Shown: positions 46,106-64,000, numbered from the stretch's first letter. The stretch is 64,000 bases of DNA from Prevotella sp. UBA3757 (GCA_002371715.1 DFGF01000068.1:2032-66031), one strand, 5' to 3'. The notes: generated from the sequence alone by a model not told the origin. Made by a program: numbers and translations.

Positions 46106-46230
46106 GCCGCAAGATCGTTAACGACGAGCCGCAAGGTCGTTGCCGACGAGCCGTAATCTCGTTAACGACGAGCCGTAATCTCGTTAACGACGAGCCGTAA
46201 TCTCGTTAACGACGAGCCATAATCCCGTTG
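46106..46230 (+). repeat. 22-bp tandem repeat, about 5.5 copies, with a TCGTTAACGA palindrome in four units
   Basis: gccgtaatctcgttaacgacga x3 exact, with flanking variants; no spacers. Confidence 0.92.
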
Positions 46231-46319
46231 ATTCATGGCATTGTCCTGTTTCCTGGGAAGAACAACGGTGCCCATTTGTTTTTTTTACGACTTTTCTTGG
46301 ACGTTCCAAAAAAAGTTCG

Positions 46320-46327
46320 TATATTTG
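46320..46327 (+). promoter_or_regulatory. -7 promoter element upstream of the structured leader and pilin operon
   Basis: TATATTTG followed by CAG, about 260 bp upstream of the ATG at 46585. Confidence 0.7.
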
Positions 46328-46329
46328 CA

Positions 46330-46545: not shown

Positions 46546-46584
46546 TGGAGGTGAAAATCGAAACTATAATATATAATAAGGTAT

Positions 46585-49500
46585 ATGAGAAAACTACTAA
46601 GAACGGTATCAACAACAGCCAAGCACCGCTGTCTCTTGCCACTGTCGTTGCTGGCAGTTATGCTTTGTATACTGGCGGGCTGTAGCGATCAAGATGTCGT
46701 TTCTGTACCAACAGGTATGCAGCCGTTGCTGTTGAGCGGACAGATAGAGCAGGAGAATATCACCCGTGCCAACGACTTCGGATTTGTCGGCGGCGACCGC
46801 ATGGGCATCTATGTGGTAGACCGCGTGAACGGCGAGGCGGGCACGCTGGGAGCCACGGGCAATCGTGCCAGCAACGTTCTCTACACCCTTGACGGTGACA
46901 GCTATCGCTGGACATCGCCCACCAGCATCTATTGGCGTGACCAACAGACAGCTGTTGATGTCTATGGCTACTATCCGGGCATGAATTATATCGAGAACCC
47001 CATGGCTTATCAGTTTAGTGTACAGACCAACCAGAATACCGAGGCTGGCAACGGCGAACTCAGTGGCTACGAGCAAAGCGACCTACTGTGGGGCAAGGCC
47101 GCCAACGTTGCATACACCACAGAACAAATCGTCGTCAAGTACCATCATATCCTGGCTGGTGTGCATGTGGCGCTGGTCAAGGGTGAGGGCATTAGCGATG
47201 CGGAGTGGCAAAAACTCGAGAAAATCGTGCTCATAGACAATACCGTCACTGAGTCAACGGTCAATCTCGCCACAGGTGTGGTAGCCCTACAGGGAACAGC
47301 CGTTGTCCCCATCCGCATGTCACCGCAGGCGGGCGACCAGTACCGTGCTGTTGTCATACCCCAGCAGGTGGCCGCAGGCAAGCATTTGGTTAGTGTCACC
47401 CTTGATGGCCAGACTTACAGCCACTCGCTGTCGTCAGCCATGCAGTATCTGGCAGGCAAACTGCATCGTTTCACACTTACCGTCAACAGGCGTGACGCCG
47501 CTGGCGACTATGAACTGTCGCTGGCCTACGATGGCATCACGCCGTGGACGAATGACGAGTCGAGCCACCAGTTTTCGGCTTTGGCCTATGTCACCGTGCA
47601 TTGTCCGGAAATGGGTAAGCTTAAAGAGAGTATCGCCCAGGCAGGATATGATTATCAAACAATCCAGAACATGAAGGTGACGGGCGAACTGACAGAGTCG
47701 GACTTCTACATGATGCGCGACGAAATGCCAGAGTTGCATCATCTGAACCTCAAAGATGCCAAGTTGAAACATATCTGCTATTATAACGGCTGGCTAGTCC
47801 ATGGCAGCCATGACTACGATTTGTTCATGGATGACATGATGCCTACCAATGCGTTCTATGGCAATCAGAGCATTCGCTCGCTCACGCTGCCATCTGCACT
47901 GAAGCGCCTGGGCGGCAATTGTTTCCGCGAAATGAGGCTGATGTATAGCACATTAGAGATACCGGAAGGGGTGACGTATATTGATGGTGATGCTTTCAGC
48001 TATAACGAATATAACGGTGTGGAGTTGTTGCTCCCCATAACACTTGACAGCATCTGCGGCTCGTTCCGTGATTGCGGATACAAGTGTGAACTGAAACTCA
48101 GCGACAACATCTCATACATCGGAGAGGGATCATTTTCCGGTCAGAACGGCTGTCCCAATTTCTATGGTGTATTCCATCTGCCGTCAAAAATCAAAACGCT
48201 GGCACCAGGCATGTTCGCAGGATTAGGCCGTACGGGCAATTTCACCGGCACCATCGAGTTGCCACAGGGAATCACCGAGACACCAGACTACAATTATTGG
48301 GGCAGTTGGGGGCCAAGCCTCTCTAATCGTATCGAGCTTATCCTGCCTTCGACGATGAAGCGCGTGGGCGACCTCTCGCTTGGTGCATACGTCACGAAGC
48401 TACAGCTCAACGAGGGGCTGGAAGAGATTGGCTATGGCAACTTCAATGGCAATGCACCCTTCCCCCTGCATTTGCCCAGCACGTTGCGCTCCATTGACCA
48501 TGACTGTTTTGTCAGTTCCCTCTATGAGGGCGAACTGACCATTCCCGAACAGTGTCTTTACATCGGTCATGGATGTTTCCGTGGAAACGAGTTTACGAAG
48601 ATTAATCTTCCTTCGCGTTTAGAGGAAATACAGGCCGACTGTTTCCGCGATAACCGCTTACTGACCCAGATAACAATCCCCAAGTACGTAGACTACATAG
48701 GACAGGGAGCCTTTGACGGCTGTGATGCGCTTCAGACGGTTATCTGTCTGGCTCAGGATCCGCCTGAACTCGGAGGTGATATTTTCCAAGGAACGTTTTT
48801 TGACAAGTGTGTGTTACAGGTGCCCGAGGCATCGGTAGAACGGTATCGCCACACTGCTGGTTGGAATCAGTTCAAAAGTATCACTGCTTATCATGAACTG
48901 GCCTTTAACGTGGCTGAGATATTGGCACTTGACAAGGGCAACACAACGAAAGGCGTGATTCGCGCCGAAGGCGACTGGGAGATTAGCAGCAAGCCCGACT
49001 GGGTAACTGTAACTCCTGCTTCTGGCCATGGCAAGGAAGAACTGACCATCACGGTCAGTCCGTACAATGCGACAGGCGAGCGAAGCGGCCAGATTGTGTT
49101 CAAACTTGCAGGAAAGGACTACACCACCTATACTGATGTGCGTCAGGTGACGGTAGACGGCGTGAAGGAAGACCAGAAGTTTACCCTGCAGACAGCATCA
49201 GCAGGAGCCCCTCGCGTGATACCTATATTTATTGTTGGCGAAGGCTATGATGCCTTTGACGTTGCCAGCGGACAGTACATGCAAGACATGCAGCAGACAA
49301 TGGACCATCTGTTCTCGTGCGAACCCTACAAGACCTACAAGGACTACTTTACTGTTTCCACGGCCATTGCCGTCTCACCCGAGCATGGTATCAATGGTCG
49401 CGTACGCTTCCAGCCCGAGAACTGGTGGACCAGCAAGGACGACCTCGTCTGGCAATATGCCAAGGAGCACGGTGAGGGCATCACCGACGCGCGTCACGGT

Positions 49501-50052
49501 GAGACCACCGTCATCGTGGTGCAGAACACCAACTATCTGGGTGGAAATACCACCAATCTGAGCGACGACGGCTTTACCATCAGCTATCTGGGTAAGAGCA
49601 CCGATACCTATCCCTATTCGCAGCGTGAATACGTCTTGCGCGAGGTGGGCGGCGTAGCCTTCGGTCATCTTGGCGTAGAACAGGTGAGCCACTTCACCTT
49701 CCTGAAATCATGTACCTGCCCGGGGTGTAACGCTATGTGCAACTATCGGAATGCCAAGAAGAATGGGTGGTATGATAATATCTCACTGTCGGGCAAGATG
49801 AGTGAGGTGCCTTGGAAAGACCTTATCTTTGACAGCCGTTATGCTCAGTATGTAGACATCTACGAAGGCGGCTACAACCACGCCCGCGGCGTCTACCGTT
49901 CAGAGCATATGAGCATTATGGGCGACTCGTTCCTACCTTATTTCAACACCATCAGCCGTATGTCGATTGTTAAGCGCATCATGCAGTATAGCGGCAGCAC
50001 GTTCACGTTCGATGCCTTTAAAAGTAAAGACAAAATAGAGATACCTGAGTGA
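46585..50052 (+). CDS. Lipoprotein: Mfa-like fimbrillin + BspA-type LRR + BACON + degenerate M64-like peptidase domain
   Basis: Lipobox LAGC; ITR^A site; GDRMGIY, VYGYYP, SDLLW; LRR repeats; W...KPDWVTV.P.SG.G (BACON); IFIVGEGY; zinc motif altered to REVGGVAFGHLGVE; YEGG...GVYRS. Confidence 0.78.
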   Translation: MRKLLRTVSTTAKHRCLLPLSLLAVMLCILAGCSDQDVVSVPTGMQPLLLSGQIEQENITRANDFGFVGGDRMGIYVVDRVNGEAGTLGATGNRASNVLYTLDGDSYRWTSPTSIYWRDQQTAVDVYGYYPGMNYIENPMAYQFSVQTNQNTEAGNGELSGYEQSDLLWGKAANVAYTTEQIVVKYHHILAGVHVALVKGEGISDAEWQKLEKIVLIDNTVTESTVNLATGVVALQGTAVVPIRMSPQAGDQYRAVVIPQQVAAGKHLVSVTLDGQTYSHSLSSAMQYLAGKLHRFTLTVNRRDAAGDYELSLAYDGITPWTNDESSHQFSALAYVTVHCPEMGKLKESIAQAGYDYQTIQNMKVTGELTESDFYMMRDEMPELHHLNLKDAKLKHICYYNGWLVHGSHDYDLFMDDMMPTNAFYGNQSIRSLTLPSALKRLGGNCFREMRLMYSTLEIPEGVTYIDGDAFSYNEYNGVELLLPITLDSICGSFRDCGYKCELKLSDNISYIGEGSFSGQNGCPNFYGVFHLPSKIKTLAPGMFAGLGRTGNFTGTIELPQGITETPDYNYWGSWGPSLSNRIELILPSTMKRVGDLSLGAYVTKLQLNEGLEEIGYGNFNGNAPFPLHLPSTLRSIDHDCFVSSLYEGELTIPEQCLYIGHGCFRGNEFTKINLPSRLEEIQADCFRDNRLLTQITIPKYVDYIGQGAFDGCDALQTVICLAQDPPELGGDIFQGTFFDKCVLQVPEASVERYRHTAGWNQFKSITAYHELAFNVAEILALDKGNTTKGVIRAEGDWEISSKPDWVTVTPASGHGKEELTITVSPYNATGERSGQIVFKLAGKDYTTYTDVRQVTVDGVKEDQKFTLQTASAGAPRVIPIFIVGEGYDAFDVASGQYMQDMQQTMDHLFSCEPYKTYKDYFTVSTAIAVSPEHGINGRVRFQPENWWTSKDDLVWQYAKEHGEGITDARHGETTVIVVQNTNYLGGNTTNLSDDGFTISYLGKSTDTYPYSQREYVLREVGGVAFGHLGVEQVSHFTFLKSCTCPGCNAMCNYRNAKKNGWYDNISLSGKMSEVPWKDLIFDSRYAQYVDIYEGGYNHARGVYRSEHMSIMGDSFLPYFNTISRMSIVKRIMQYSGSTFTFDAFKSKDKIEIPE

Positions 50053-50053
50053 T

Positions 50054-53000
50054 ATGAAGAAAAGACCATTATTTTTATTATTAATAGCCTCGCTGCTCAC
50101 CGCCTGCCATGAGGATATCGCAACGGGACAGTCGGCCAAGCAGGGAGAACCGCTCGACCTCTCGGCAACGGTCAGCCAGGAGTATGTGACACGTGCCAGC
50201 GACGGCGGTTTTGCCAACGGCGACCAGATAGGTGTATTCATCGCTAACTACACCACCTCCGATGGCACCCAGTGGCGGGCATCAACGCTACAACTCACTG
50301 GCAACCATGCTGACAACGTGCGCTTCACCTATAATGAGAGCGAAGGCAAGTGGACGGCCAGTTATCAGCTCTATTGGAAAGACAAACAGACGCCTGTCGA
50401 TGCCTACGGCTACTACCCGTTTGACGGCGAACTAAGCAGCATAGAAGCCTACCCCTTTGTCGTGCAGAAGCGGCAGGATGCCAGGCTGCAGACTGGTCGA
50501 CAGCTTTCGGGCTATGAGGCCAGCGACTTCCTGTGGGCCAAGGCAGAAAACAAACTTCCACATCAGGGTCCCATCATGCTGAATCATCATCACCTGATGG
50601 CTGGCATCAAGGTGGTGCTGACCGAAGGTGAAGGCTTTGATGAAGGTGAATGGGAGAAGATAGAGAAGAAGGTGCAGGTCGAGGGTACCAAGCTGCAGAG
50701 CACTATTAACCTGCAGACCGGGACTGTCAGCATCGTTGCCAGTTCTTCTGTAGAATCCATCGTTCCCCAACAGAGCAGCGATACCTACCGTGCCGTTGTC
50801 GTTCCTCAAACAGTGGCAGCAGAGCAGACCCTTTTCTCCTTCACCATCGACGGGAAGAGCAGTACATTTGCCCGTAGTGGGTCCGTGTCCTATCTCTCAG
50901 GCAAACTCCACCAGTTTACATTTAGTGTCAACAAGTTGTTAGAACCAGGCGACTATGAGCTTAAACTGACCGATGAAACCATTACGGACTGGGAGAACGA
51001 CAGCAAGAGCCACAATGGCGAGGCACGTGAGTACGTCATGGTGCATGTCGGCGAACAACAGTTTTTAGGCGACGTCATCGAAAGCCTTGGACTTGACCCT
51101 TCGAAAATCGTCAATCTGAAAATAACAGGCTATTTAGGTAAGTCGATTGCCTGGTATGACGAATGGACAGGACAGCCCCACTACCTGCCTGGCTCAAGGC
51201 ATTTTGAATATATGCGCAATAACATGCCCAATCTGGAGGCACTTAATCTGAGGGAGATTGTCAATATCAACGGACCAGCTGAAGACTATGCTCATAGTTG
51301 GAAACAATCAGCAGGTATTGAAAAAGTTCAAAGCAATCCCTACGAACAAGATGTTTCCAATTACGACCACACACTGCCTTATTGCGCTTTTGAGAATATG
51401 GCATCATTGCGTTATTTCGTATGGCCAGAAAAGGGATTAGAAGCCATTGGTAGCATGGCGTTTGCTGGGTCGGGACTGAGCGGGTCACTGATACTGCCCG
51501 AAGGAGTGATTTATATAGGTGGATCAGTATTCTCTGCTTATGGCCATAAGGCATGTAGTTTGACGGGCGATGTTTACATTCCGTCAACGGTTGAATATAT
51601 TGGAGGAAGCGCTTTCGGCTCTAACGACGGAAATGTCAATATGTGCTTCTTCACAAACGAACTCATCTTGCCTGCCAAGATGAAGTATTTGGGAAGTAAT
51701 GCCTTTGGCGGTTGTCCTTACATGACAGGCACCATTCGTGTACCTGACGGCATCACCGAGCTGAACAATGCCTGGCCTGACCAGATTAAAGGTCCAGTTG
51801 TTATTCCGCAGGGTGTCAAGAAAATCAATGGCATACCACGCGGTGCCACCCACGTCAAGATACCCGAAGGCGTGGAAACCATTGGATCCCGTGCATTTGA
51901 GATGACGAAACTGCTCAGATGTGACGTTCAGCTTCCCTCAACGGTCAAGACGATAGGCGACAATGCTTTCGTGAACTCAGCCTTGACACACATCACACTG
52001 CCCGAAGGACTGGAACTGATAGAAGGGGCTACCTTCTATAATTGTGAGAACCTGCAGGACACGGTTGTCATTCCCTCTACTGTCACACAGATACGAGCTG
52101 ATGCTTTTGCCTACTGTAAGCAGCTTACAGCCATCATCCTGCCTGCTGGTCTGCAGGGCATACAGGATGAAGCCTTTGCCAACTGCTACTCGCTCGACTA
52201 CATCGAGTGCTTGGCCAGTGAGCCTCCAGCCATTGAGGAAAACACCTTCAGCGGCGTAGAGAAGGATAACTTCACAGTGGTAGTGCCTGAAGGTGCTGTG
52301 GAGGCATATAAGAATGCGCCCCACTGGAAAGAGTTCAAACGCATCTCGGCATACCGCAACTTCGTTTGCCGCCCCATGAAGGCCAAACTGCTGAATAAGA
52401 GTAATGTGCGCGACGTGGTGCTCAATGCCGACGGTAACTGGAGTGTCACCAGCTGTCCTACGTGGGCACACGTCAGCCAGACCTCCGGATCAAAGAAGAC
52501 AGAACTGAAGGTGGCCATTGACGCTATGGCGCATGGAAGTGGCGACCGCACGGGCGAGATTGTTTTCACCCTCAACCGCAAGGACGATGAAGGCAACCCC
52601 ATCACCTGCAAGTACACCATTGAGCAATATGACTATGAGATTGACGAGGATGCCGTCCTGACGCTGCAGACGCATTCAAAAGGCAACGGCATCAATATCC
52701 TCTTCGTGGGTGATGGCTACGATGCCGAGGATATAGCCCACGGCACCTATCGCACCGACATGGAGCAGGAAATGGCATATTTCTTTGGCGTGGAGCCATA
52801 CAAGACCTATCGCCCATACTTCAATGTCTCGGCAGCTATGGCTATGAGCTACGAGAGCGGAGCGGTCGACTCGCCCGACAAGTGGCGCAACACGAAGTTC
52901 AACATCACCTGGGGTGCCGGCAATAACGGTCGCTTGGCCGTGCCGTTTGACGACATTGCCACCTACGTTCTCACCGGTATTACCAACAGTCCCGTGACAG

Positions 53001-53683
53001 CTGCCAATGTCGGCAATTCGCTCATTATCTGCGTGCCCAACAGCGATGCCTACGAAGGTCTGACTGCTATGTATGGCGACGGTTCGGCCATTGCCGTATG
53101 TCCGATGAGTAAGCTGGACTATCCTAACGATGCCCGCGGACTCATTCAGCACGAGGCCGGTGGTCACGGATGGGCGAAACTTGACGACGAGTATGTTTAC
53201 CACCGCGACAATATCCATACCTGTCCCTGTCTATGCTGCTCTCACGTGGATGGCATACAGTCGATGCACGCCATGGGGTGGGGACGTAACCTTTCACTCT
53301 CAGGCAAATATAGCGACGTGCCATGGAGTCACCTCATCAACCATTCGCAATATCGCGACATCGTAGATATTTATGAGGGTGGCCATATGCACGCACGCGG
53401 TGTCTATCGCTCAGAGGTAAACTCCGTCATGAACAACAACGTGCCCTATTTCAGTTCGTGGTCGCGCCAGATTATTGTGGAGCGCATCAAGAAGGTTGCC
53501 GGCGAGAAGTTCTCGTTCGAAGAGTTCGTAGCAAACGACAGTCGTCAGCAGGGCGATAAGTTCCTGGCAGCACGAAGGAGTACTCCTGTCTTCAACGAGC
53601 AACCAGTCTATAGCGAGCACCACCATCCAGTCATTAAACCAGGTCGTATGACCGACTATGTGAAGAAAGGAGGCAAAAGATGA
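50054..53683 (+). CDS. Lipoprotein: Mfa-like fimbrillin + LRR + BACON + M64-like metallopeptidase
   Basis: Lipobox LTAC; VTR^A; GDQIGVF, AYGYYP, SDFLW; LRRs; ILFVGDGY, EPYKTYRPYFNV, HEAGGHGWAKLDDEY and YEGG...GVYRSEVNSVM. Confidence 0.8.
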   Translation: MKKRPLFLLLIASLLTACHEDIATGQSAKQGEPLDLSATVSQEYVTRASDGGFANGDQIGVFIANYTTSDGTQWRASTLQLTGNHADNVRFTYNESEGKWTASYQLYWKDKQTPVDAYGYYPFDGELSSIEAYPFVVQKRQDARLQTGRQLSGYEASDFLWAKAENKLPHQGPIMLNHHHLMAGIKVVLTEGEGFDEGEWEKIEKKVQVEGTKLQSTINLQTGTVSIVASSSVESIVPQQSSDTYRAVVVPQTVAAEQTLFSFTIDGKSSTFARSGSVSYLSGKLHQFTFSVNKLLEPGDYELKLTDETITDWENDSKSHNGEAREYVMVHVGEQQFLGDVIESLGLDPSKIVNLKITGYLGKSIAWYDEWTGQPHYLPGSRHFEYMRNNMPNLEALNLREIVNINGPAEDYAHSWKQSAGIEKVQSNPYEQDVSNYDHTLPYCAFENMASLRYFVWPEKGLEAIGSMAFAGSGLSGSLILPEGVIYIGGSVFSAYGHKACSLTGDVYIPSTVEYIGGSAFGSNDGNVNMCFFTNELILPAKMKYLGSNAFGGCPYMTGTIRVPDGITELNNAWPDQIKGPVVIPQGVKKINGIPRGATHVKIPEGVETIGSRAFEMTKLLRCDVQLPSTVKTIGDNAFVNSALTHITLPEGLELIEGATFYNCENLQDTVVIPSTVTQIRADAFAYCKQLTAIILPAGLQGIQDEAFANCYSLDYIECLASEPPAIEENTFSGVEKDNFTVVVPEGAVEAYKNAPHWKEFKRISAYRNFVCRPMKAKLLNKSNVRDVVLNADGNWSVTSCPTWAHVSQTSGSKKTELKVAIDAMAHGSGDRTGEIVFTLNRKDDEGNPITCKYTIEQYDYEIDEDAVLTLQTHSKGNGINILFVGDGYDAEDIAHGTYRTDMEQEMAYFFGVEPYKTYRPYFNVSAAMAMSYESGAVDSPDKWRNTKFNITWGAGNNGRLAVPFDDIATYVLTGITNSPVTAANVGNSLIICVPNSDAYEGLTAMYGDGSAIAVCPMSKLDYPNDARGLIQHEAGGHGWAKLDDEYVYHRDNIHTCPCLCCSHVDGIQSMHAMGWGRNLSLSGKYSDVPWSHLINHSQYRDIVDIYEGGHMHARGVYRSEVNSVMNNNVPYFSSWSRQIIVERIKKVAGEKFSFEEFVANDSRQQGDKFLAARRSTPVFNEQPVYSEHHHPVIKPGRMTDYVKKGGKR

Positions 53684-56600
53684 AAAGTTACACCATATTA
53701 TATTATTTAGCCCTACCGCTGTTGCTGCTTGCGTCCTGCGCTGAGGAGATAACCGACAGCACCACCGCTGACAAGAAGAACGCGCAACCCATCCGTCTGG
53801 TCTCGGCCTATCCGGGTGTCGTTACCCGTGCCACGATTGATGGTGGCTTTTCAGTGGGCGACGAGATGGGAGTCTTTGTCGTAGACCGTAATGCCGAAGG
53901 AGAAGTCGGCGAAATGGCGCTGCGGGGCAATCGTGCCTCGAACATGCGTTTCACGTTGAACGACGATGGAACATGGGCATCACCGACACAACTTTATTGG
54001 AGTGAGAAAGGCAATAGTGCTGATTTCTATGGTTACTATCCGTTCGACGGTAACCTGTCGTCAGTCACTGCCTATCCATTCACCATTGCTGAGAAGCAGG
54101 ACGAAACGCTACGTTCCAGTGGTATGAGTGGCTATATAGCCAGTGACCTGTTGTGGGCCCGTCAGCAGAATGTGAAACCTACTGCGGAGACCGTCACGCT
54201 ACAGTACCGTCACCTGATGGCCGGCATCACCCTTCGTTTAGAGATGGGTACGGGCTTCACAGCCGAAGAGTGGGCGCAATTGGAGAAAAAAGTGTTCCTG
54301 TGTAACACCATTCTTAGCGGTACCGTCAACCTTCAGGAAGGTACAGTCCAGGCAGGCGATTCCGACGCAGGCCTTATCACGCCTCTCCCTCACGGAGGCG
54401 CAGCCTCCTATCGTGCCGTTGTTTTTCCACAGACTGTAGCTGCTGGTAAGGCGTTAGTTTCTGTGATGATAGATGGACGCGACTATTTCCTGAAGAAGAA
54501 CGAACCGATGGTCTACCTTTCGGGTAAGATGCACCAGTTTACCGTCACCGTCAACCGTTCAACGGCTACGGGCGATTACACCTTGTCACTCGACGACGAG
54601 AGCATCACACCGTGGGTTGACGACCCAGACCTGCACGAAGGTCTGGTACGCCAGTATCTGGTGGTGGGACTGTCAGAAGCGGGCACGCTGGCCGCCAAAC
54701 TTGCCGAGATGGGCAAGAATCCAGCCGACCTGTTGGCCTTAAAAATTGTGGGACCAGTAAACGGCAGTGACTATCAGACCATCAACCTGATGAAGAAGCT
54801 GACGCATCTGAACCTCATCAAGGCTATCCCTGAGGGAGAACGTCTCTATGGCATCGAATGGATTCCATTGGAAAAAGTGTTCTTCCCGGAAAAGGGCCTG
54901 AAATATCTTGACGGCTTCAACGAGACCCATTTGCGCGGTTCGCTGGTCATTCCTGAGGGTGTTGAGGAAGTGGGCGGTTTCTGGGGGAACGACTTTTCCG
55001 GTACATTGACGCTGCCGTCAACGCTTAAAGTTATGAGGATGCTCATCGACCCGTTCAAGGGCGATATTGCTATTCCTGACCAGATAGAGGTGTGGGAACC
55101 CACAGGATTCGGAGGTACCAAGTTGACAGGTACGCTGAACCTACCTTCTACGTTGAAGAAACTGAAGTATGTACCTTCTGGCTTGACAGGTACTATCAGT
55201 ATTCCGCAGGGATGTGAACTGACTGATATTGGTACTTTTTCGGGTTCTCAATGTACAGCTCTTATTCTGCCGGAAGGTATGACAGACATTCTGCATACAA
55301 CGTTCTTGAATTCAGAAATTCGGGGCGAGGTCCTTCTACCTTCCACGATTACACATATAGGACCAAGTGCTTTTGCGGGTTCAAAGATTTCAAAAATTAC
55401 ATTTCCTGATGCATTAAGACAGATGGACGATGGTGGTTATAACTTTGAAGGTATTTTTGCTGACTGCTCTCGTCTTTCCGGAACCATCAGATTACCCAAG
55501 AACGTTGCTCGCATACCAAAGGGATGTTTTCTCCATTGTAGTATGTTGGAAGGGCTGGTAATTCCAGCAGGAACAGCAATCCTTGATGAATTATGTTTTG
55601 CAGGATGCAACAATCTGAACTCCATCGTCTGTGAAGGCGAGGAGCCACCCTTTGTGGTAGACGGCGCTTTCGAAGGCGTGCCGAAAGACAACTTCACCGT
55701 TGAGGTGCCTGCGGGCTGTGTGGAGAAATATCGCAATGCCATAGGATGGAGCGAGTTCAAGCGTATTGCGGAATACAGCAACTTCGTATGCCGTCCTGCT
55801 CAGGCTCAGGCCTTGAACACGGCCCATAGTGAACAGTTGACACTTAACGCCGATGGCAACTGGACTGTAGCAAGCAAGCCCGACTGGGTGACGCTCTCGG
55901 CCACCACCGGCACAGGTAAGACACCGATTACGCTGACTTTCCAGCCGCTGGCAAAAGGTGCTGGAAACCGAACAGGAGAAGTGGTATTTCAGATGGTCCA
56001 TGAGGGAAAGACCGTCAGTACTGCCTGTACTGTCAGCCAGTTCGACTATCAATACGATGAGGACTACTGCCACACACTGCAGACCCACAGCAAGGGACGC
56101 GGCATCGACATCGTCTTTGTGGGCGACGGTTGGGATGGTGCCTCTATCAGCGACGGTTCGTATCTCAACTTGATAAAATACCAGGCGGAGTGCTTCTTTG
56201 CCATCGAGCCATACCGCTCCATGCGCGAATACTTCAACGTATATGTCACCTTCCCCCTGTCGCAGGAGAAAGGGGTGAACACGATGAGCCACTATGTGAA
56301 CAATCGCTTCGGCACCCTGCAGGGCTGGTCGTCGCTCATTCAGGGCTCACAGGCAGATTGCACTTCTACCCAGTTGATAATGGAAACCTATGAGGTGGAA
56401 CAGTATGTTGCCAGCAAGACTCCCGTAGAACAGGACAACCTGTGGCGCACACTGGTCATTGCCGTGCCGAACACTACCGATTACGAGGGTAATACCGTGT
56501 TCAACATTGGCGGAATGGCTATCTCCATCTGTCCTCCTTCAGAGCAGGCTTATCCGCGTGATACCCGTGGTACCATTCAGCATGAAGCAGGCGGACATGG

Positions 56601-57126
56601 CTTTGGCAAGCTGGGCGACGAGAACATCAGCCGCAATGCCTTTGCTACCTATTCTGTGAAGTCGCAGATTGACGATATGCACAGTCGTGGCTGGTACGAT
56701 AATCTGGCCACTACGGGTAAGTTACACGACGTGCCTTGGGCAGAATTCATCTTTGATGCTGCCTATAGTGACTATGTCGATGTCTACGAGGGCGGCTATG
56801 GCTATACGCGCGGTATTTATCGCCCCGAGGCTAACTCTTGCATGAACTATGGCATACCTTATTATAATACACCTTCACGCCTGTCCATCTATAAACGCAT
56901 CAAGCAGTATGCTGGTGAGAGCTGGACGATGGAGGAGTTTCGAGCCCAGGATACCTTCGAATGGGGACCGACGGAAGTCACGCGTTCAGCGGCGCATCAG
57001 ACTGACAACCTGACGCCGATAACCAGTGGTAATCATCATGCTCCTACGCTTGTCCGTTTCCGTGAGACAAGTGACAAGGTTCGTGCAATTCGGGAAAGAC
57101 TAAAGAATGAAAGAAATAAAAGATGA
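53680..57126 (+). CDS. Lipoprotein: Mfa-like fimbrillin + LRR + BACON + M64-like metallopeptidase
   Basis: Lipobox LASC; VTR^A; GDEMGVF, FYGYYP, SDLLW; LRRs; IVFVGDGW, EPYRSMREYFNV, HEAGGHGFGKLGDE and YEGG...GIYRPEANSCM. Confidence 0.8.
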   Translation: MKSYTILYYLALPLLLLASCAEEITDSTTADKKNAQPIRLVSAYPGVVTRATIDGGFSVGDEMGVFVVDRNAEGEVGEMALRGNRASNMRFTLNDDGTWASPTQLYWSEKGNSADFYGYYPFDGNLSSVTAYPFTIAEKQDETLRSSGMSGYIASDLLWARQQNVKPTAETVTLQYRHLMAGITLRLEMGTGFTAEEWAQLEKKVFLCNTILSGTVNLQEGTVQAGDSDAGLITPLPHGGAASYRAVVFPQTVAAGKALVSVMIDGRDYFLKKNEPMVYLSGKMHQFTVTVNRSTATGDYTLSLDDESITPWVDDPDLHEGLVRQYLVVGLSEAGTLAAKLAEMGKNPADLLALKIVGPVNGSDYQTINLMKKLTHLNLIKAIPEGERLYGIEWIPLEKVFFPEKGLKYLDGFNETHLRGSLVIPEGVEEVGGFWGNDFSGTLTLPSTLKVMRMLIDPFKGDIAIPDQIEVWEPTGFGGTKLTGTLNLPSTLKKLKYVPSGLTGTISIPQGCELTDIGTFSGSQCTALILPEGMTDILHTTFLNSEIRGEVLLPSTITHIGPSAFAGSKISKITFPDALRQMDDGGYNFEGIFADCSRLSGTIRLPKNVARIPKGCFLHCSMLEGLVIPAGTAILDELCFAGCNNLNSIVCEGEEPPFVVDGAFEGVPKDNFTVEVPAGCVEKYRNAIGWSEFKRIAEYSNFVCRPAQAQALNTAHSEQLTLNADGNWTVASKPDWVTLSATTGTGKTPITLTFQPLAKGAGNRTGEVVFQMVHEGKTVSTACTVSQFDYQYDEDYCHTLQTHSKGRGIDIVFVGDGWDGASISDGSYLNLIKYQAECFFAIEPYRSMREYFNVYVTFPLSQEKGVNTMSHYVNNRFGTLQGWSSLIQGSQADCTSTQLIMETYEVEQYVASKTPVEQDNLWRTLVIAVPNTTDYEGNTVFNIGGMAISICPPSEQAYPRDTRGTIQHEAGGHGFGKLGDENISRNAFATYSVKSQIDDMHSRGWYDNLATTGKLHDVPWAEFIFDAAYSDYVDVYEGGYGYTRGIYRPEANSCMNYGIPYYNTPSRLSIYKRIKQYAGESWTMEEFRAQDTFEWGPTEVTRSAAHQTDNLTPITSGNHHAPTLVRFRETSDKVRAIRERLKNERNKR

Positions 57127-57989
57127 ATGATATGAAGAAAATTGGACTATTAGCTGTCGCAGTACTGATGATGGCTGCGTGCAGCAATGACGAGACAAGT
57201 GAACAGGGCTATAAGGCTGACAATGGAGAGATGCTGTTCCAATTCGTTTATCCGGGCGTGACGCGTGCCACGGACACGAATTTTGAAAACACCGACAAGA
57301 TTGGTGTCTATGTGACGGCAAAGGATGAGCCGTTGCAGATTGGCGGCAATGAGGTGAACAACGAGCTGTTTACCTATAACGGGTCGTCGTGGACGTCAAG
57401 CCGCAAAGTATATTGGAACACGGGCAGCCACGACGTGTACGCCTATTATCCTTATTCAAAAACGGTGAACGACATCAGCGATTACGCGTTCCAAGTACAG
57501 GCCGACCAGAGCACGGCGGCGGGCTATACGGCCAGCGATTTCCTGTGGGCAGGCAAAAAAGGCGTAGCGGCTTCGGCCTCGCCCGTCACCATGACCTTTG
57601 CCCATAAGCTGTCGAACGTGGTGGTGAAACTGGAGAAGGGGGAGAACTATACAGGCGACATTCCTGCTTCGACGGAGGTGTATGTTCACTCGACGGTGAC
57701 AAAAGCGGTTATTGACCTCTCTACAGGCGATGCCGCCAAGGATAATTATGCAGGTACAGGGTCGGTGCGCTGTCGTCAGAAGTCGGCCACTGAGTATGTC
57801 GCTTGCGTGGTGCCGCAGAACATCACGACGCGCCGCCCGCTGGTGGAGGTTATCAGTGGCGGGGTGAGCTACTTGATGGAGGGTAAGATTTCGCTGAAGC
57901 CCGGCATGCGCCATACCATCACCGTGACGCTGGATAAGAATCCTGAGCAGACCAAGATTGACATCGGTGGCAGCATCGAGGGATGGTAA
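57123..57989 (+). CDS. Stand-alone fimbrillin (Mfa-like type V pilin) lipoprotein
   Basis: Lipobox MAAC; VTR^A; DKIGVY, VYAYYPY, SDFLWA, FAHKLS and VVPQ; ends GGSIEGW. The start could be 57132. Confidence 0.85.
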   Translation: MNDMKKIGLLAVAVLMMAACSNDETSEQGYKADNGEMLFQFVYPGVTRATDTNFENTDKIGVYVTAKDEPLQIGGNEVNNELFTYNGSSWTSSRKVYWNTGSHDVYAYYPYSKTVNDISDYAFQVQADQSTAAGYTASDFLWAGKKGVAASASPVTMTFAHKLSNVVVKLEKGENYTGDIPASTEVYVHSTVTKAVIDLSTGDAAKDNYAGTGSVRCRQKSATEYVACVVPQNITTRRPLVEVISGGVSYLMEGKISLKPGMRHTITVTLDKNPEQTKIDIGGSIEGW

Positions 57990-57997
57990 TTTCTTAA

Positions 57998-58028
57998 GTG
58001 AAGAATGAAGAATGAAGAGTGAAGAATG
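57998..58028 (+). repeat. Heptad array (RTGAAGA x4), intergenic
   Basis: gtgaaga atgaaga atgaaga gtgaaga atg. Confidence 0.85.
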
Positions 58029-58065
58029 CAACGCCATACTCTCAAAAAGAGAATTTGCTACCGCC

Positions 58066-58965
58066 ATGAATAAGGCGATAATTGGTTGCTGGCTTTTGGC
58101 CATAGGACTTACGGCATGCAGCAGTGATGATGCCGGAAGCTCGCAGGAATCTGACGTGCCGCCAGTGGAGAACCGTCAGACCGTAGATATTGTGACGCGC
58201 TCTGAGGGTGATGGCATCAGCGGAAGTGGTTTGAAGGCTGGCCTTTATATGGTGAACTATGCCGACGAACAGCAGATGCCGCTGCTGGCAAGCGGCAACT
58301 ATGTCAACAATCTGCTGATGAACCATAGTGATGGGGCATGGCAGCCGACTACGCCCATCTACTGGCAGAACAGCAATGTGAATGCCGACTTCTATGCCTA
58401 TGCTCCTTATGCCGCAGAGGTGAGTGATGCCAGGGCTATGATGTTTCGTGTAGCTACTGACCAGACGTCAGATGATGCGTATAATAAAAGCGACCTGCTT
58501 TGGGGAGCTGTCCAGGGGCAGTCGCCATTGGCCGGAAAATTCAACCTGATGTTGAACCATGTGCTGAGCAGTTTGACGATTGTTGTGGTCCCTGGTGCTG
58601 GATTCAGTGAAGGTGAACTGACTACTAATGATGTTTCTGTTAGCATCGGAGGAAGCAAGACACTTGGGACAATAGACCTGCAAACCGGCATAGTTACTGC
58701 TACCGGTGAAGTGGCTGACGTTAAATGCCGAAGCAATAGCGACCTGACTTATTCTGCTATTCTGCTGCCTCAACAGATAGCATTCGCTAATTTGGTGAAG
58801 GTTGACTGGAACGGCAATAGCTATACACTTCAGAATTCCTTCAAACTGGAAGCTAAGAAGCAATACCGGCTGACAATCAAATTAAACAAAACGCAGGGTG
58901 GACTGGACATTGGTATCAGTGGCTGGGATATCATCGACGAGGACTTTGGTGGTACTGTCGGATAA
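58066..58965 (+). CDS. Stand-alone fimbrillin (Mfa-like type V pilin) lipoprotein
   Basis: Lipobox LTAC; VTR^S; FYAYAPY, SDLLWG, LNHVLS, AILLPQ and ISGW. Start set at 58066 because the ATG at 58012 lies within the heptad array. Confidence 0.82.
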   Translation: MNKAIIGCWLLAIGLTACSSDDAGSSQESDVPPVENRQTVDIVTRSEGDGISGSGLKAGLYMVNYADEQQMPLLASGNYVNNLLMNHSDGAWQPTTPIYWQNSNVNADFYAYAPYAAEVSDARAMMFRVATDQTSDDAYNKSDLLWGAVQGQSPLAGKFNLMLNHVLSSLTIVVVPGAGFSEGELTTNDVSVSIGGSKTLGTIDLQTGIVTATGEVADVKCRSNSDLTYSAILLPQQIAFANLVKVDWNGNSYTLQNSFKLEAKKQYRLTIKLNKTQGGLDIGISGWDIIDEDFGGTVG

Positions 58966-59000
58966 TAACAACGAATTTCACGAACGAAACGAATTAGCAA

Positions 59001-62000
59001 ATGAAACGAATAATATGGGTTTTAATGTTCTTGTGCTTTGCTATGGTTGTTCCTGTCATGGCACAGACAGACGTGGAAGTGACCGATAGCACATCAGGCG
59101 AATGGGGTGGTGGACAGGGCGGCGACCTTGACCCTAACCATCCCGCTATCAAGATTACTGCCAAGAGCTACACCCGCGTCTATGGTGAAGCCAATCCGAC
59201 GTTCGAGTTTACCTCTGAGGGTGCAACGCTTGTTGGTGTGCCTGAAATCACCTGCGAGGCCACGGCCACATCGCCCGTTGGCACTTACCCGATTGTCATC
59301 AAGAAGGGTACGGTGACGAACTACAACGACACGTATGTCAATGGCACGCTGACCATCACCAAGGCCCCGCTGTCTGTCAAGGCAGGTACATACACCAAGA
59401 AACAAGGTGAGGAGAATCCTGCATTTACATTAAGCTACGATGGCTGGAAAAACAACGAAACTGAGGCTGTACTGACAAAGAAGCCTGTGGCAACGACGAC
59501 TGCCACGAAGGAGAGCGCACCAGGCGAATATCCCGTAACAGTCAGCGGTGGCGAGGCTCAGAACTATGAGCTGTCGTACACCCCTGGCAAGCTGATTGTG
59601 ACGGACGCCGATGCCGTGGTCGTGACTGCGAAGAGCTATACCCGCGTCTATGGCGATGCCAATCCAACTTTTGAGTACGAAGTCAGCGGTACAACGCTCA
59701 TGGGTGTTCCTGAAATCACCTGCGAAGCCACTCCCACTTCGCCCGTCGGCACTTACCCAATTATTATTAAGAAGGGTACGGTGACGAACTACAACGACAC
59801 GTATGTCAACGGCGTGCTGACCATCACCAAGGCTCCGCTGACTGTCAAGGCAGGGACATACACCAAGAAGCAGGGCGAGGATAATCCAGCATTTACGCTG
59901 ACTTACGACGGCTGGAAGAACAGTGAGACCGAGGCCGTACTGACGAAGAAACCGATGGCCACGACGACAGCCACGAAGGAGAGTGCACCTGGCGAGTATC
60001 CTGTAACAGTCAGCGGTGGCGAGGCTCAGAACTATGAGCTGTCGTACACCCATGGCAAGCTGATTGTGACGGACGCCGATGCCGTGGTCGTGACGGCTAA
60101 GAGTTATATCCGTGTCTATGGCGATGCCAATCCGACATTTGAATACGAAGTGAGTGGCACAGCGTTAGTCGGTGTGCCAGAGATTACCTGCGAGGCCACT
60201 GCAACGTCGCCCGTCGGTACTTACCCGATTGTCATCAAGAAGGGCTCGGTGACGAACTACAACGACACGTATGTCAACGGCACACTGACCATCACCAAGG
60301 CTCCGCTGGCAGTCAAGGCCGGCACATACACGAAGAAGCAGGGTGAGGAGAATCCTGCGTTTACGCTGACGTACGACGGTTGGAAAAACAACGAGACGGA
60401 GGCTGTACTGACGAAGAAGCCGACGGCAACGACGACAGCCACGAAGGAGAGTGCCCCGGGCGAATATCCCGTGACGATTTCTGGTGGCGAGGCTCAGAAC
60501 TACGAGCTGTCGTACACTCCTGGCAAGCTCATCGTGACGGATGCCGATGCCGTGGTGATTACCGCCAAGAGCTACACCCGCGTCTATGGCGATGCCAATC
60601 CGGCATTTGAATACGAAGTCAGCGGTACAACGCTCGTGGGTGTTCCTGAGATTACTTGTGAGGCCACGGCCACATCGCCCGTCGGCACCTATCCGATTGT
60701 CATCAAGAAAGGTACGGTGACGAACTACAACGACACCTACGTCAATGGCACGCTGACCATTACCAAGGCTCCGCTGGCAGTCAAGGCTGGTACTTATACT
60801 AAGAAGCAGGGTGAGGAGAATCCTGCATTTACGCTAACGTACGATGGCTGGAAGAACAACGAGACCGAGGCTGTACTAACCAAGAAGCCCGTGGCAACGA
60901 CGACGGCTACGAAGGAGAGCGCACCGGGCGAATATCCTGTGACGGTCAGCGGTGGCGAGGCTCAGAACTATGAGCTGTCGTACACCAACGGTAAACTGAT
61001 TGTGACGGATGCTGATGCCGTGGTTGTGACCGCTAAGAGTTACACCCGCGTCTATGGCGATGCCAATCCAACGTTCGAGTTTACCTCTGAGGGTGCAACG
61101 TTAGTTGGTTCGCCCGAGATAACCTGCGAGGCCACGGCAACGTCGCCCGTCGGTACTTACCCGATTGTCATCAAGAAAGGTAGCGTGACGAACTACAACG
61201 ACACGTATGTCAACGGCGTGCTGACCATCACCAAGGCTCCGCTGACTGTCAAGGCAGGGACATACACCAAGAAGCAGGGTGATGATAATCCAGCATTTAC
61301 GCTGACGTACGATGGCTGGAAGAACAATGAGACCGAGGCCGTACTGACGAAAAAGCCTGTGGCCACGACGACTGCCACAAAGGAAAGCGCACCAGGCGAG
61401 TATCCCGTAACCGTCAGCGGTGGCGAGGCCCAGAACTATGAGTTGTCGTACACTAATGGCAAGCTGATAGTAACCGATGCCGATGCCGTGGTTGTGACCG
61501 CTAAGAGTTACACCCGCGTCTATGGCGATGCCAATCCAACGTTCGAGTTTACCTCTGAGGGTGCAACGTTAGTTGGTTCGCCCGAGATAACCTGCGAGGC
61601 CACGGCAACGTCGCCCGTCGGTACTTACCCGATAGTCATCAAGAAAGGTAGCGTGACGAACTACAACGACACGTATGTCAATGGCACACTGACCATCACC
61701 AAGGCTCCGCTGTCAGTCAAGGCCGGCACATACACCAAGAAGCAGGGCGAGGATAATCCAGCATTTACGCTGACTTACGATGGCTGGAAGAACAGTGAGA
61801 CCGAGGCCGTACTGACGAAGAAACCGATGGCCACGACGACAGCCACGAAGGAGAGCGCACCTGGCGAATATCCCGTAACAGTCGGCGGTGGCGAGGCCCA
61901 GAACTATGAGCTGTCGTACACCCATGGCAAGCTGATTGTGACGGACGCCGATGCCGTGGTCGTGACCGCCAAGAGCTACACCCGCGTCTATGGCGATGCC

Positions 62001-64000
62001 AATCCGACATTTGAGTTTACCTCTGAGGGTGCAACGCTCGTGGGCGTTCCTGAAATCACCTGTGAGGCCACTGCCACGTCGCCCGTCGGCACTTACCCGA
62101 TCATCATCAAGAAGGGCACGGTGACGAACTACAACGACACGTATGTCAATGGCACACTGACCATTACCAAGGCCCCGCTGGCAGTCAAGGCCGGCACATA
62201 CACCAAGAAGCAGGGCGAGGATAATCCAGCATTTACGCTGACGTACGATGGCTGGAAGAACGGTGAGACCGAGGCCGTACTGACGAAGAAACCGATGGCC
62301 ACGACGACAGCCACGAAGGAGAGTGCGCCTGGCGAGTATCCCGTAACAGTCAGCGGTGGCGAGGCCCAGAACTATGAGCTGTCGTACACCCATGGCAAGC
62401 TGATTGTGACGGACGCCGATGCCGTGGTCGTGACCGCGAAGAGCTATACCCGCGTCTATGGCGATGCCAACCCGACGTTTGAATACGAAGTGAGTGGTGC
62501 AACGCTCGTGGGTGTTCCTGAAATCACCTGCGAGGCCACGGCCACTTCGCCCGTCGGCACTTACCCGATAGTCATCAAGAAAGGCACGGTGACGAACTAC
62601 AACGACACGTATGTCAATGGCGTGCTGACCATCACCAAGGCTCCGTTGACAGTCAAGGCCGGCACATACACCAAGAAACAGGGTGAGGATAATCCAGCAT
62701 TTACGCTGACGTACGATGGCTGGAAGAACAATGAGACCGAGGCCGTACTGACGAAAAAGCCTGTGGCCACGACGACTGCCACAAAGGAAAGCGCACCAGG
62801 CGAATATCCTGTGACGGTAAGCGGTGGCGAGGCCCAGAACTACGAGCTGTCGTATACCCATGGCAAGCTTGTCGTGACGGATGCCGATGCTGTCGTGATT
62901 ACCGCCAAGAGCTACACCCGCGTCTATGGCGATGCCAATCCGGCATTCGAATATGAGGTCAGCGGCACAACGCTCGTGGGCGTTCCTGAAATCACCTGCG
63001 AGGCCACGGTCACATCGTCTGTCGGCACTTACCCGATAGTCATCAAGAAAGGTACGGTGACGAACTACAACGACACCTACGTCAATGGCACGCTGACCAT
63101 TACCAAGGCCCCGCTGGCAGTCAAGGCCGGCACGTACACGAAGAAACAGGGTGAGGAGAATCCAGCATTTACATTAACCTATGATGGCTGGAAGAACAGT
63201 GAGACCGAGGCCGTACTGACGAAGAAACCGACGGCCACGACGACAGCCACGAAGGAGAGTGCGCCTGGCGAGTATCCCGTAACCGTCAGCGGTGGCGAGG
63301 CTCAGAACTATGAGCTGTCGTACACTAATGGCAAGCTGATAGTAACCGATGCCGATGCCGTGGTGATTACCGCCAAGAGCTACACCCGCGTCTATGGCGA
63401 TGCCAATCCGACGTTCGAGTTTACCTCTGAGGGTGCAACGCTCGTGGGCGTTCCTGAAATCACCTGCGAGGCCACGGCCACATCGCCCGTCGGCACTTAC
63501 CCGATTGTCATCAAGAAGGGTACGGTGACAAACTACAATGACACGTATGTGAATGGTACGCTGACTATCACCAAGGCTCCGCTGTCTGTCAAGGCCGGCA
63601 CGTACACCAAGAAGCAGGGTGAGGATAATCCTGCATTTACGCTGACGTACGATGGCTGGAAGAACAATGAGACCGAGGCCGTACTGACGAAGAAGCCGAC
63701 GGCAACGACGACAGCCACGAAGGAGAGTGCCCCGGGCGAATATCCTGTGACCGTTTCTGGTGGCGAGGCCCAGAACTATGAGCTGTCGTACACCCATGGC
63801 AAGCTGATTGTGACGGACGCCGATGCCGTGGTGATTACCGCCAAGAGCTACACCCGCGTCTATGGCGATGCCAACCCGGCATTTGAATACGAAGTCAGCG
63901 GTACAACGCTCGTGGGTGTTCCTGAAATCACCTGCGAGGCCACGGCCACATCGCCCGTCGGTACTTACCCGATCATCATCAAGAAGGGTACGGTGACAAA
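59001..64000 (+). CDS. Giant secreted repetitive protein with tandem MBG-like (Ig-fold) domains; incomplete, runs off the window and is absent from the ORF track
   Basis: ATG at 59001, signal peptide MKRIIWVLMFLCFAMVVPVMA, then 156-aa units ITAKSYTRVYG.ANP...GTLTITKAPL.VKAGTYTKKQGE.NP...NYELSYT.GKLIVTDADA. No in-frame stop seen where I checked. Confidence 0.88.
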   Translation, partial: MKRIIWVLMFLCFAMVVPVMAQTDVEVTDSTSGEWGGGQGGDLDPNHPAIKITAKSYTRVYGEANPTFEFTSEGATLVGVPEITCEATATSPVGTYPIVIKKGTVTNYNDTYVNGTLTITKAPLSVKAGTYTKKQGEENPAFTLSYDGWKNNETEAVLTKKPVATTTATKESAPGEYPVTVSGGEAQNYELSYTPGKLIVTDADAVVVTAKSYTRVYGDANPTFEYEVSGTTLMGVPEITCEATPTSPVGTYPIIIKKGTVTNYNDTYVNGVLTITKAPLTVKAGTYTKKQGEDNPAFTLTYDGWKNSETEAVLTKKPMATTTATKESAPGEYPVTVSGGEAQNYELSYTHGKLIVTDADAVVVTAKSYIRVYGDANPTFEYEVSGTALVGVPEITCEATATSPVGTYPIVIKKGSVTNYNDTYVNGTLTITKAPLAVKAGTYTKKQGEENPAFTLTYDGWKNNETEAVLTKKPTATTTATKESAPGEYPVTISGGEAQNYELSYTPGKLIVTDADAVVITAKSYTRVYGDANPAFEYEVSGTTLVGVPEITCEATATSPVGTYPIVIKKGTVTNYNDTYVNGTLTITKAPLAVKAGTYTKKQGEENPAFTLTYDGWKNNETEAVLTKKPVATTTATKESAPGEYPVTVSGGEAQNYELSYTNGKLIVTDADAVVVTAKSYTRVYGDANPTFEFTSEGATLVGSPEITCEATATSPVGTYPIVIKKGSVTNYNDTYVNGVLTITKAPLTVKAGTYTKKQGDDNPAFTLTYDGWKNNETEAVLTKKPVATTTATKESAPGEYPVTVSGGEAQNYELSYTNGKLIVTDADAVVVTAKSYTRVYGDANPTFEFTSEGATLVGSPEITCEATATSPVGTYPIVIKKGSVTNYNDTYVNGTLTITKAPLSVKAGTYTKKQGEDNPAFTLTYDGWKNSETEAVLTKKPMATTTATKESAPGEYPVTVGGGEAQNYELSYTHGKLIVTDADAVVVTAKSYTRVYGDANPTFEFTSEGATLVGVPEITCEATATSPVGTYPIIIKKGTVTNYNDTYVNGTLTITKAPLAVKAGTYTKKQGEDNPAFTLTYDGWKNGETEAVLTKKPMATTTATKESAPGEYPVTVSGGEAQNYELSYTHGKLIVTDADAVVVTAKSYTRVYGDANPTFEYEVSGATLVGVPEITCEATATSPVGTYPIVIKKGTVTNYNDTYVNGVLTITKAPLTVKAGTYTKKQGEDNPAFTLTYDGWKNNETEAVLTKKPVATTTATKESAPGEYPVTVSGGEAQNYELSYTHGKLVVTDADAVVITAKSYTRVYGDANPAFEYEVSGTTLVGVPEITCEATVTSSVGTYPIVIKKGTVTNYNDTYVNGTLTITKAPLAVKAGTYTKKQGEENPAFTLTYDGWKNSETEAVLTKKPTATTTATKESAPGEYPVTVSGGEAQNYELSYTNGKLIVTDADAVVITAKSYTRVYGDANPTFEFTSEGATLVGVPEITCEATATSPVGTYPIVIKKGTVTNYNDTYVNGTLTITKAPLSVKAGTYTKKQGEDNPAFTLTYDGWKNNETEAVLTKKPTATTTATKESAPGEYPVTVSGGEAQNYELSYTHGKLIVTDADAVVITAKSYTRVYGDANPAFEYEVSGTTLVGVPEITCEATATSPVGTYPIIIKKGTVT
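59154..64000 (+). repeat. 468-bp tandem repeat, 10 complete units plus a partial 11th
   Basis: The aagagcta anchor occurs at 59163, 59631 ... 63843, an offset of exactly 10 x 468. Confidence 0.95.

Follow-up and report, generated by a model that had tools for sequence, protein, structure and literature searches.

Type V pili are known as adhesive fibres, with binding domains rather than enzymes as the known cargo of their tips. Whether such a pilus could also carry a peptidase is the question raised by a stretch of 64,000 nucleotides (nt) from Prevotella sp. UBA3757 (GCA_002371715.1 DFGF01000068.1:2032-66031), called here the window, in which positions are counted from the first letter. Five same-strand open reading frames (ORFs), g1 to g5, all of them lipoprotein genes, fill positions 46585-58965 on its plus strand (Table 1). 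We observed that all five products carry an Mfa-like pilin module and that g1-g3 continue from it into leucine-rich repeats (LRRs), a BACON domain and an M64-like metallopeptidase domain. This anatomy of the operon and its domains is near-certain. The reading that we build on it, an operon for a surface assembly like a type V pilus with enzymes on its terminal subunits, is evenly poised between right and wrong.

Five pilin-type lipoproteins and their fused modules

The genes are tightly packed. One base pair (bp) separates g1 from g2, 4-bp ATGA overlaps join g2 to g3 and g3 to g4, and g5 follows g4 after 22 bp, or after 76 bp if counted from its likelier start, the ATG at 58066, which gives a product of 299 amino acids (aa). 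The ORF coordinates and the lipoboxes (LAGC, LTAC, LASC, MAAC and LTAC in g1 to g5) confirmed the five packed, co-oriented lipoprotein genes that an earlier note on this DNA, made from the sequence alone, had described. Acidic residues stand after every lipobox Cys, which fits surface export in lipoproteins of the Bacteroidota.

The Mfa-like pilin motifs that the same note had seen in all five proteins were recovered with the Pfam hidden Markov model (HMM) Mfa_like_1 at E values of 1.7e-44 to 4.8e-62 (g1 1.7e-44, g2 2.6e-54, g4 4.8e-62, g5 1.7e-49). An NCBIfam scan of the operon proteins added only weak LRR-adhesin matches. The pilin module ends in ITPW in g1 and g3 and in ITDW in g2. The AlphaFold model of the N-terminal 340 residues of g2 (pLDDT, the predicted local distance difference test, 88.8) is that of a type V pilin, an outcome on which the earlier note had made its proposal depend; before the Arg there is a short N-terminal strand (36-40), and the last strand, a long one (301-312), reaches to ITDW. 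The first 31 matches of a Foldseek search with this model were all type V pilins of Bacteroidales (E 5e-15 to 3e-5), including 4k4k, 3ufi, 3sy6, the tip pilin 4eps, Mfa3 (5nf4), Mfa2 (5nfi) and FimA (6jzk), and g4 matches 3ufi by sequence at E 1e-6. The two-domain beta-sandwich fold of type V pilins was thus found by HMM in all five proteins and by modelling in g2.

The Arg (or Lys) maturation site that type V pilins have in the loop following their N-terminal anchor strand is present, at the sequence level, in all five proteins. Thr-Arg is invariant and lies 27-30 residues after the lipid Cys, within the 20-30 residues that had been noted before, and both residues (T46 and R47 in g2) reach a conservation of at least 90% in 54 long homologs and in 48 homologs of g4. 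Mfa1 has its Cys at position 20 and is cut between Arg49 and Ala50; FimA is cut at Arg46 (PMC13655056).

The operon resembles the Mfa and Fim systems of Porphyromonas gingivalis (Mfa1-5, FimA-E) in its lipoprotein precursors with a two-sandwich pilin fold, in the distance of the Arg from the lipid Cys (compare R49 of Mfa1 and R46 of FimA) and in being a five-gene operon that mixes short structural pilins with larger accessory subunits. It differs from them in that all its subunits fall into the small Mfa_like_1 subfamily, with no Arg-less anchor of the Mfa2/FimB type, and in that its three large subunits carry LRR, BACON and metallopeptidase domains where Mfa and Fim carry adhesive or von Willebrand factor A (vWA) domains. 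Assembly of the operon products is putative.

Past the I-x-x-W strand, g1-g3 run into the LRR, BACON and M64-like domains that the earlier note had listed, as the Pfam searches bore out. The HMMs proposed there (Mfa_like_1, LRR_5, BACON and Peptidase_M64) all found their domains, with scores far beyond chance except for a marginal BACON in g2. LRR_5 scored 111-170 bits in g1-g3 (cut-off 27.7; E 4e-32 to 3e-50; three stretches in each), and Peptidase_M64 scored 35-47 bits (cut-off 26). BACON scored 42 bits in g1, 24.8 in g2 and 27.5 in g3 against a cut-off of 25; the g2 domain is marginally under it but aligns with the others. The LRR is the least conserved module of g2 among its orthologs (33-56% identity). 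Its repeats are like those of BspA-type LRR proteins such as the adhesin HupY/LrrG in scoring strongly with LRR_5. Unlike HupY/LrrG, the operon proteins reach only 30-65 bits against the HupY equivalog cut-off of 1250, and they share with it the repeat type alone.

A variant M64-like site, a degenerate copy and a conserved tail

The sequence of the g2 M64-like domain matches 4df9/3p1v at E 1e-6. Its model (g2 residues 860-1170; pLDDT 95) gave 17 significant Foldseek matches, all of them M64 structures (E 2e-15 to 1e-10, TMq about 0.65), among which were BF3526 (9qdi, 4df9; E 2e-15), BACOVA_00663 (3p1v) and the immunoglobulin A (IgA) protease of Thomasclavelia ramosa. The zincin fold that the earlier note had expected of the C-terminal domain is therefore seen in g2, as an M64 fold.

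Family M64 is defined by HEXXHXXXGXXD, a motif that all clusters of a recent survey keep; in BF3526 the ligands are H311, H315 and D322 and the base is E312 (PMC12402451). In g2 and g3 we found HEAGGH, then six residues, the ligand Asp (D1046 in g2, D980 in g3) and a Glu. The operon domains are like BF3526 (4df9, 9qdi) and ThomasA of T. ramosa (9qdh, 9i4z) in their catalytic fold and in how far the Asp ligand and the next Glu stand from the second His, but unlike these enzymes, which have HEFGH, they carry one extra residue between the Glu and the second His. Because of this inserted residue we regard them as a divergent, M64-like subfamily and not as canonical members. They also differ in a conserved C-terminal tail, in an identity of only 16-20%, and in the domain that precedes the catalytic one: no match to Peptidase_M64_N (PF16217) was found in g1-g3, and BACON stands there instead.

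HEAGGH occurs in 195 of the 267 homologs and close variants occur in most others, so it is a hallmark of the subfamily and not an accident of alignment. The H, E, H and D are kept in 238 of 263 homologs, and HEA[GC]GH...DE in all g2 and g3 orthologs. As in TldD and dipeptidyl peptidase III (DPP III; family M49, HEXXGH), the two His of the zinc helix would stand five residues apart, and HEAGGH fits HEXXGH. The folds are unrelated, however, and the likeness is convergent and confined to the motif. HEXXXH binds the catalytic metal in both enzymes through a locally distorted helix, the extra residue in TldD being taken up by a distorted helical turn (PMC5810440). Since TldD and DPP III use it, the HEXXXH of g2 and g3 should be compatible with catalysis.

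In the g1 orthologs, six in all, the catalytic set is lost: every one has another residue for the second His, and the Asp position is Lys or Pro in the five from outside the window. Judged by these residues, g1 is a conserved pseudo-peptidase. The three M64-like peptidases of the earlier note are thus present as domains in all three proteins, but the catalytic set is lost from g1 and the motif is HEXXXH, not HEXXH. A Cys cluster, located where ThomasA has its structural zinc site (one Glu and three Cys), is kept in g1 and g2 and deleted from g3. We consider it probable that g2 and g3 are surface peptidases.

A conserved tail of about 45 residues closes the proteins of the g2 and g3 lineages, and those of the g1 lineages break off no more than about 7 residues past the domain. 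Among the 263 homologs, the tail has at least 25 residues in 232 of the 238 with intact H, E, H and D/E (median 45) and fewer than 15 in 19 of the 25 with degenerate catalytic residues, counts that are inflated by kinship, most of the degenerate cases being a single g1 lineage. TR[SGAT] is found near the start of 140 of the 232 tails, against 6.9 expected from shuffles, and a Pro-hydrophobic-hydrophobic element later in 189 of them, against 40 expected. The tail TR resembles the pilin maturation site, and tails of this type are also present on non-pilin homologs. The bond that ThomasA cuts is Pro-Val, and BF3526 has a preference for positions following Pro (PMC12402451); for this reason the tail is a candidate propeptide or pseudo-substrate.

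Distribution, subunit roles and competing explanations

The synteny survey across Bacteroidales that the earlier note had suggested showed an operon order conserved ortholog by ortholog. The full order g1-g2-g3-g4-g5 is present in L004 (an uncultured Prevotella), in L005 and L009 (metagenome-assembled genomes, MAGs, of Bacteroidaceae) and in L006 (a Muribaculaceae MAG), and partial copies are present in L007 and L008. L012, from another family, has g2, g3, g4 and a degenerate g1 beside two serine recombinases, and L013, from a distant family, has a minimal short-long-short form; one long and two short genes may be the basic unit. Each operon protein is most similar to its positional counterpart in the other loci, across families, so g1-g3 are old, differentiated paralogs. 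Interchangeable tips arising from recent duplication were rejected on this ground, and the interchangeability of the long genes claimed earlier did not hold.

The operon is distributed patchily. Two of 300 evenly drawn genomes of the order have a g4 ortholog, beside long fusions in both, and no close one (best 49% identity) was found in 150 genomes of the host's family, six of the host genus included. The absence of a close g4 ortholog from these six genomes, the serine recombinases of L012 and the low G+C of the operon would fit lateral spread. Metagenomes of the gut and rumen contain the fusion very commonly. In clusters made there at 90% identity, 7,406 of 8,000 scored candidates (664-2116 aa) match the g2 peptidase domain, which amounts to more than 7,400 clusters, and the matches listed carry Mfa_like_1, LRR_5 and M64. 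At 50% identity, 2,599 representatives match at E up to 1e-3, and the full fusion architecture is present in 58 of the top 150.

In type V pili, stalk and anchor subunits donate C-terminal strands, for which a free C-terminus is required, and tips are without donor strands; anchors are without the Arg site, and C-terminal truncation of Mfa1 abolishes assembly (PMC13655056). As the last pilin strand of g1-g3 runs on into about 850 residues of cargo, these three proteins are plausibly strand acceptors only, i.e. tips. The tip role that the earlier note gave to the long genes is reasonable in this respect, there being no free C-terminus to donate. Its assignment of both short genes as shaft or anchor is too simple, as only g5 has a free donor extension. 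This extension has 12 residues after the I-x-x-W strand (58927-58962), and one of 12-13 residues (W-D-I-I-D-E-D-F-G-G-T-V-G and variants) is conserved in the g5 lineage in L004, L005, L006, L009 and L013. Because it is free and conserved even in the distant L013, g5 is the best donor-strand candidate. The most conserved subunit is g4, with orthologs of up to 91% identity; it could serve as a bare cap or as an adaptor. A complex prediction for the mature g2 pilin (48-335) and mature g4 (49-288), made with alignments and without controls, gave ipSAE values of 0.17 and 0.21 (mark 0.32) and counts neither for nor against binding; g5, with its free extension, would be a better partner than g4. For the assembly of g2 and g3 by strand exchange, we put the chances at even.

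A pilin handle with a functional head is already established, because Bacteroides tip pilins with lectin heads fused at the C-terminus are surface-exposed and cut at R43. Experiments showed both for BfrT (bioRxiv 10.1101/2024.11.15.621889). The long operon proteins are like BfrT, BthT and BunT in leading from an N-terminal pilin module through extra domains to a functional head, and in being encoded beside short pilins. They are unlike them in cargo: an LRR and an enzyme domain with no diversity-generating retroelement (DGR), in place of a C-type-lectin binding fold diversified by one. The long genes also come first in the operon, and the long gene comes last in the BfrT, BthT and BunT loci.

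The mechanism that we propose is the following. The g1-g5 proteins would be lipidated and flipped to the cell surface, where an Arg-specific protease would cut after the conserved Thr-Arg and free the groove held by the N-terminal anchor strand. Being acceptors only, g1-g3 would each cap a fibre or a short anchor-tip stub, with g5 as the likeliest strand donor (stalk and/or anchor) and g4 as a bare cap or adaptor. At the tip, the LRR would pick a protein ligand, BACON would act as a spacer and the M64-like domain would cleave, g1 serving as a non-cleaving binder. The roughly 45-residue tail of g2 and g3 (TR[SG], then Pro-hydrophobic) would be a propeptide or pseudo-substrate that keeps the enzyme latent, and could be removed by the same Arg-protease. 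The host genome has one Peptidase_C25 ORF (1208 aa, C142), the size of which fits the type IX secretion system (T9SS) sortase PorU as well as a gingipain; it was for this reason not counted as evidence for a maturase.

If this were so, Bacteroidales could hold a peptidase, together with an LRR that selects targets, at a distance of tens of nanometres from their cells, which would be a new route to process host, dietary or competitor proteins. As the operon lies in the dominant proteolytic rumen genus, it may matter for ruminal protein breakdown or for the handling of host immunoglobulins. In its most specific form the proposal is an unrecognised class of type V pilus with an enzyme as its tip, each fibre being capped by one of two latent HEXXXH metallopeptidases or by a dead-peptidase binder, in which one Arg-protease both licenses strand exchange and activates the peptidase at the TR of the tail, where the Pro-hydrophobic pseudo-substrate would lie. 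We offer this form tentatively, as it is rather unlikely to hold in full. No paper combining type V pili (or fimbrillin) with M64 peptidases was found in literature searches, and the enzyme head, the set of two active paralogs and one dead one, the HEXXXH M64 site and the catalysis-linked tail are undescribed in the literature searched. The operon offers a natural active/dead paralog set together with a variant of the M64 site that the recent M64 survey does not describe (PMC12402451).

Several observations weigh against a pilus with enzymatic tips. g4 and its orthologs end at the Trp, with no free extension. No Arg-less anchor subunit is present among the five window proteins, only the g5 ortholog of L005 being without the Arg, and the two Mfa2-family ORFs of the host genome (C140, C58) lie elsewhere, none within the operon. 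The canonical M64 motif is absent from g1-g3. The same M64-like domain is also found on BACON-M64, BACON(n)-LRR-M64 and DUF4988-M64 lipoproteins with no pilin module; as the domain and its tail occur on ordinary BACON-only lipoproteins, the enzyme needs no fibre. The kinship behind the tail counts belongs among these points as well.

Much of this suits the strongest rival explanation, in which the long proteins are stand-alone surface lipoproteins, the Mfa-like module being a membrane-proximal stalk that does not polymerise and only keeps the LRR, BACON and peptidase domains clear of the outer membrane, and g4 and g5 are small independent adhesins or a separate minor fimbria co-transcribed by chance. 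The M64-like domain and tail function on lipoproteins that have no pilin, a free donor extension is missing from four of the five products, and the operon has no anchor-type pilin. Mfa_like_1 could moreover be a generic display handle, given how many other cargos it carries: C-lectin/FGE-type folds, a metallophosphoesterase, Flg_new repeats and, according to one in-silico remark in the literature, nucleases. A passive stalk, however, has no need of the Thr-Arg that is near-invariant at an Mfa1-like position in the long proteins. The strict linkage of long and short pilins across distant families, the minimal three-gene form included, and the conserved C-terminal extension of g5 likewise speak for assembly. 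Stand-alone lipoproteins are a serious possibility, though clearly short of an even chance.

Another explanation concerns the biological role and fits either assembly model: the proteins would form a nutritional peptidase battery with which a proteolytic rumen Prevotella trims feed or microbial peptides, the LRR only prolonging residence on particles. The host is a ruminant-gut Prevotella with a neighbourhood rich in glycoside hydrolases and large adhesins, and BF3526, the closest solved relative, trims the N-termini of pre-digested proteins, not intact IgA (PMC12402451). It is a real possibility, though less likely than not. The elaborate build of the three paralogs, each some 1,150 residues long and equipped with an LRR, and the conserved dead copy among them suggest the selective recognition of protein targets. 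It is improbable that the complex is a three-headed adhesive tip in which the M64-like domains of g2 and g3 are binding modules like g1 and HEXXXH is non-catalytic: the motif is indeed one residue longer than the HEXXH of the family, g1 is certainly non-catalytic and yet conserved, and LRR and BACON are binding or spacer modules, but the catalytic residues are lost only in particular lineages, as expected under functional selection (238 of 263 homologs keep them), HEXXXH is catalytically competent in TldD and DPP III, and a pure binder would hardly account for a tail that has a Pro-hydrophobic element and goes with the intact motif.

Genomic setting and neighbouring genes

Table 1. Coordinates of the operon genes, their domains and sites, and adjoining features in the window
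Feature	Position	Strand	Remarks
Promoter-like site	46298..46327	+	contains TATATTTG, Bacteroidota -7 type; TGGACG-16-TATATT; about 260 nt 5' of g1
g1	46585..50052	+	1155 aa; lipoprotein: pilin, LRR_5, BACON, degenerate M64-like; no C-terminal tail
g1 sites	lipobox Cys 46681-46683; T-R 46762-46767	+	from sequence
g1 Mfa_like_1 module	46762..47547	+	residues 60-321; ends in ITPW
g1 motif region	49639-49683	+	REVGGV...VE; both His and the Asp ligand lost
g2	50054..53683	+	1209 aa; lipoprotein: pilin, LRR_5, BACON, M64-like with intact motif, C-terminal tail
g2 Mfa_like_1 module	50189..50992	+	Cys18, R47/A48; ends in ITDW
g2 BspA-type LRR region	51041..52363 (approximate)	+	LRR_5 E 2.8e-50, 3 stretches
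g2 BACON	52436..52591	+	24.8 bits; 66-68% identity in orthologs
g2 M64-like domain	52631..53563	+	HEAGGH...DDEY 53150-53194; Cys cluster CPCLCC 53222-53239
g2 tail	53564..53680	+	Arg-Arg-Ser, His-rich, Pro-Val-Ile, basic end
g3	53680..57126	+	1148 aa; lipoprotein: pilin, LRR_5, BACON, M64-like with intact motif, tail
g3 motif	56581-56625	+	HEAGGH...GDEN; Cys cluster deleted
g3 tail	56980-57123	+	from sequence
g4	57123..57989	+	288 aa; short Mfa_like_1 pilin; Cys20, R48/A49; ends flush at ...IEGW
g5	58012..58965	+	317 aa; short Mfa_like_1 pilin; Cys36, R63/S64; C-terminal extension
Possible sixth gene	59001..64000, continues to G000:C57:66932	+	starts 35 bp after g5; about 1966 aa

The promoter-like site 5' of g1 matches the Bacteroidota consensus TAnnTTTG. 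The upstream gene is closed by a hairpin and T-run (45594-45636), and no convincing terminator was found within g1-g5. Within 44000-64000, the G+C content steps down at exactly the operon boundary, from about 0.60 to about 0.51. An Rfam search at E up to 1 gave no match for the 5' leader of g1 (46330-46584), which is not conserved 5' of g1 in L004, L005, L008 and L012 (mean column identity 40%); if structured, it is lineage-specific. We also considered phase variation by an invertible promoter and found it unsupported, as only one weak 13-nt inverted repeat flanks the promoter region.

The host genome is a MAG of 3.04 Mb, 76% complete, whose DnaA shares 91% identity with the DnaA of ruminant-gut Prevotella MAGs. 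As dnaA lies in the window (17644-19053), the region is probably near the chromosomal origin. Other Mfa_like_1 loci of this genome are three short pilins in a row (C171:7287-9913) and several ORFs of 430-780 aa with tandem pilin modules (C6:26831-35283).

The possible sixth gene encodes a signal peptide, not of the lipoprotein kind, at least 21 MBG_2 repeats and a T9SS-like C-terminal end. In L005 a different giant (Flg_new, Big_2, F5/8-C) follows g5, and the two giants have in common the first 35 residues alone (49% identity, E 8e-9). A shared start of this kind suggests that variable adhesins tied to the operon are built on a conserved N-terminal handle.

Upstream of g1, five copies of a 22-bp tandem repeat occupy 46106-46251. 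The segments 45518-45553 and 46083-46118, the latter just before the repeat and the former at the 3' end of the upstream gene for a 2831-aa protein, are 78% identical; the origin of the repeat seems to lie in a duplicated piece of sequence coding for a T9SS tail. The spacer 5' of g1 at 45800-46050 translates to short fragments that resemble an AAA-ATPase/PD-(D/E)XK-type gene. In L007 an intact 533-aa ORF (1142-2743) is inserted between g1 and g2; it may be of the same AAA-ATPase/PD-(D/E)XK kind, a mobile passenger at the operon.

Two giant surface proteins are encoded further upstream (32420-45563). The first has 1545 aa with eight LRR_5 stretches and a weak Dockerin_1 (E 3e-4), and the second has 2831 aa with CARDB, CarboxypepD_reg, Flg_new_2 and a T9SS-like end. 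With the operon and the MBG_2 giant they make up a surface-protein island of about 32 kb. Between dnaA and this island lies a polysaccharide-utilisation cluster with glycoside hydrolases (GH2, GH28, GH88 and GH106) and a carbohydrate esterase (CE)-type esterase.

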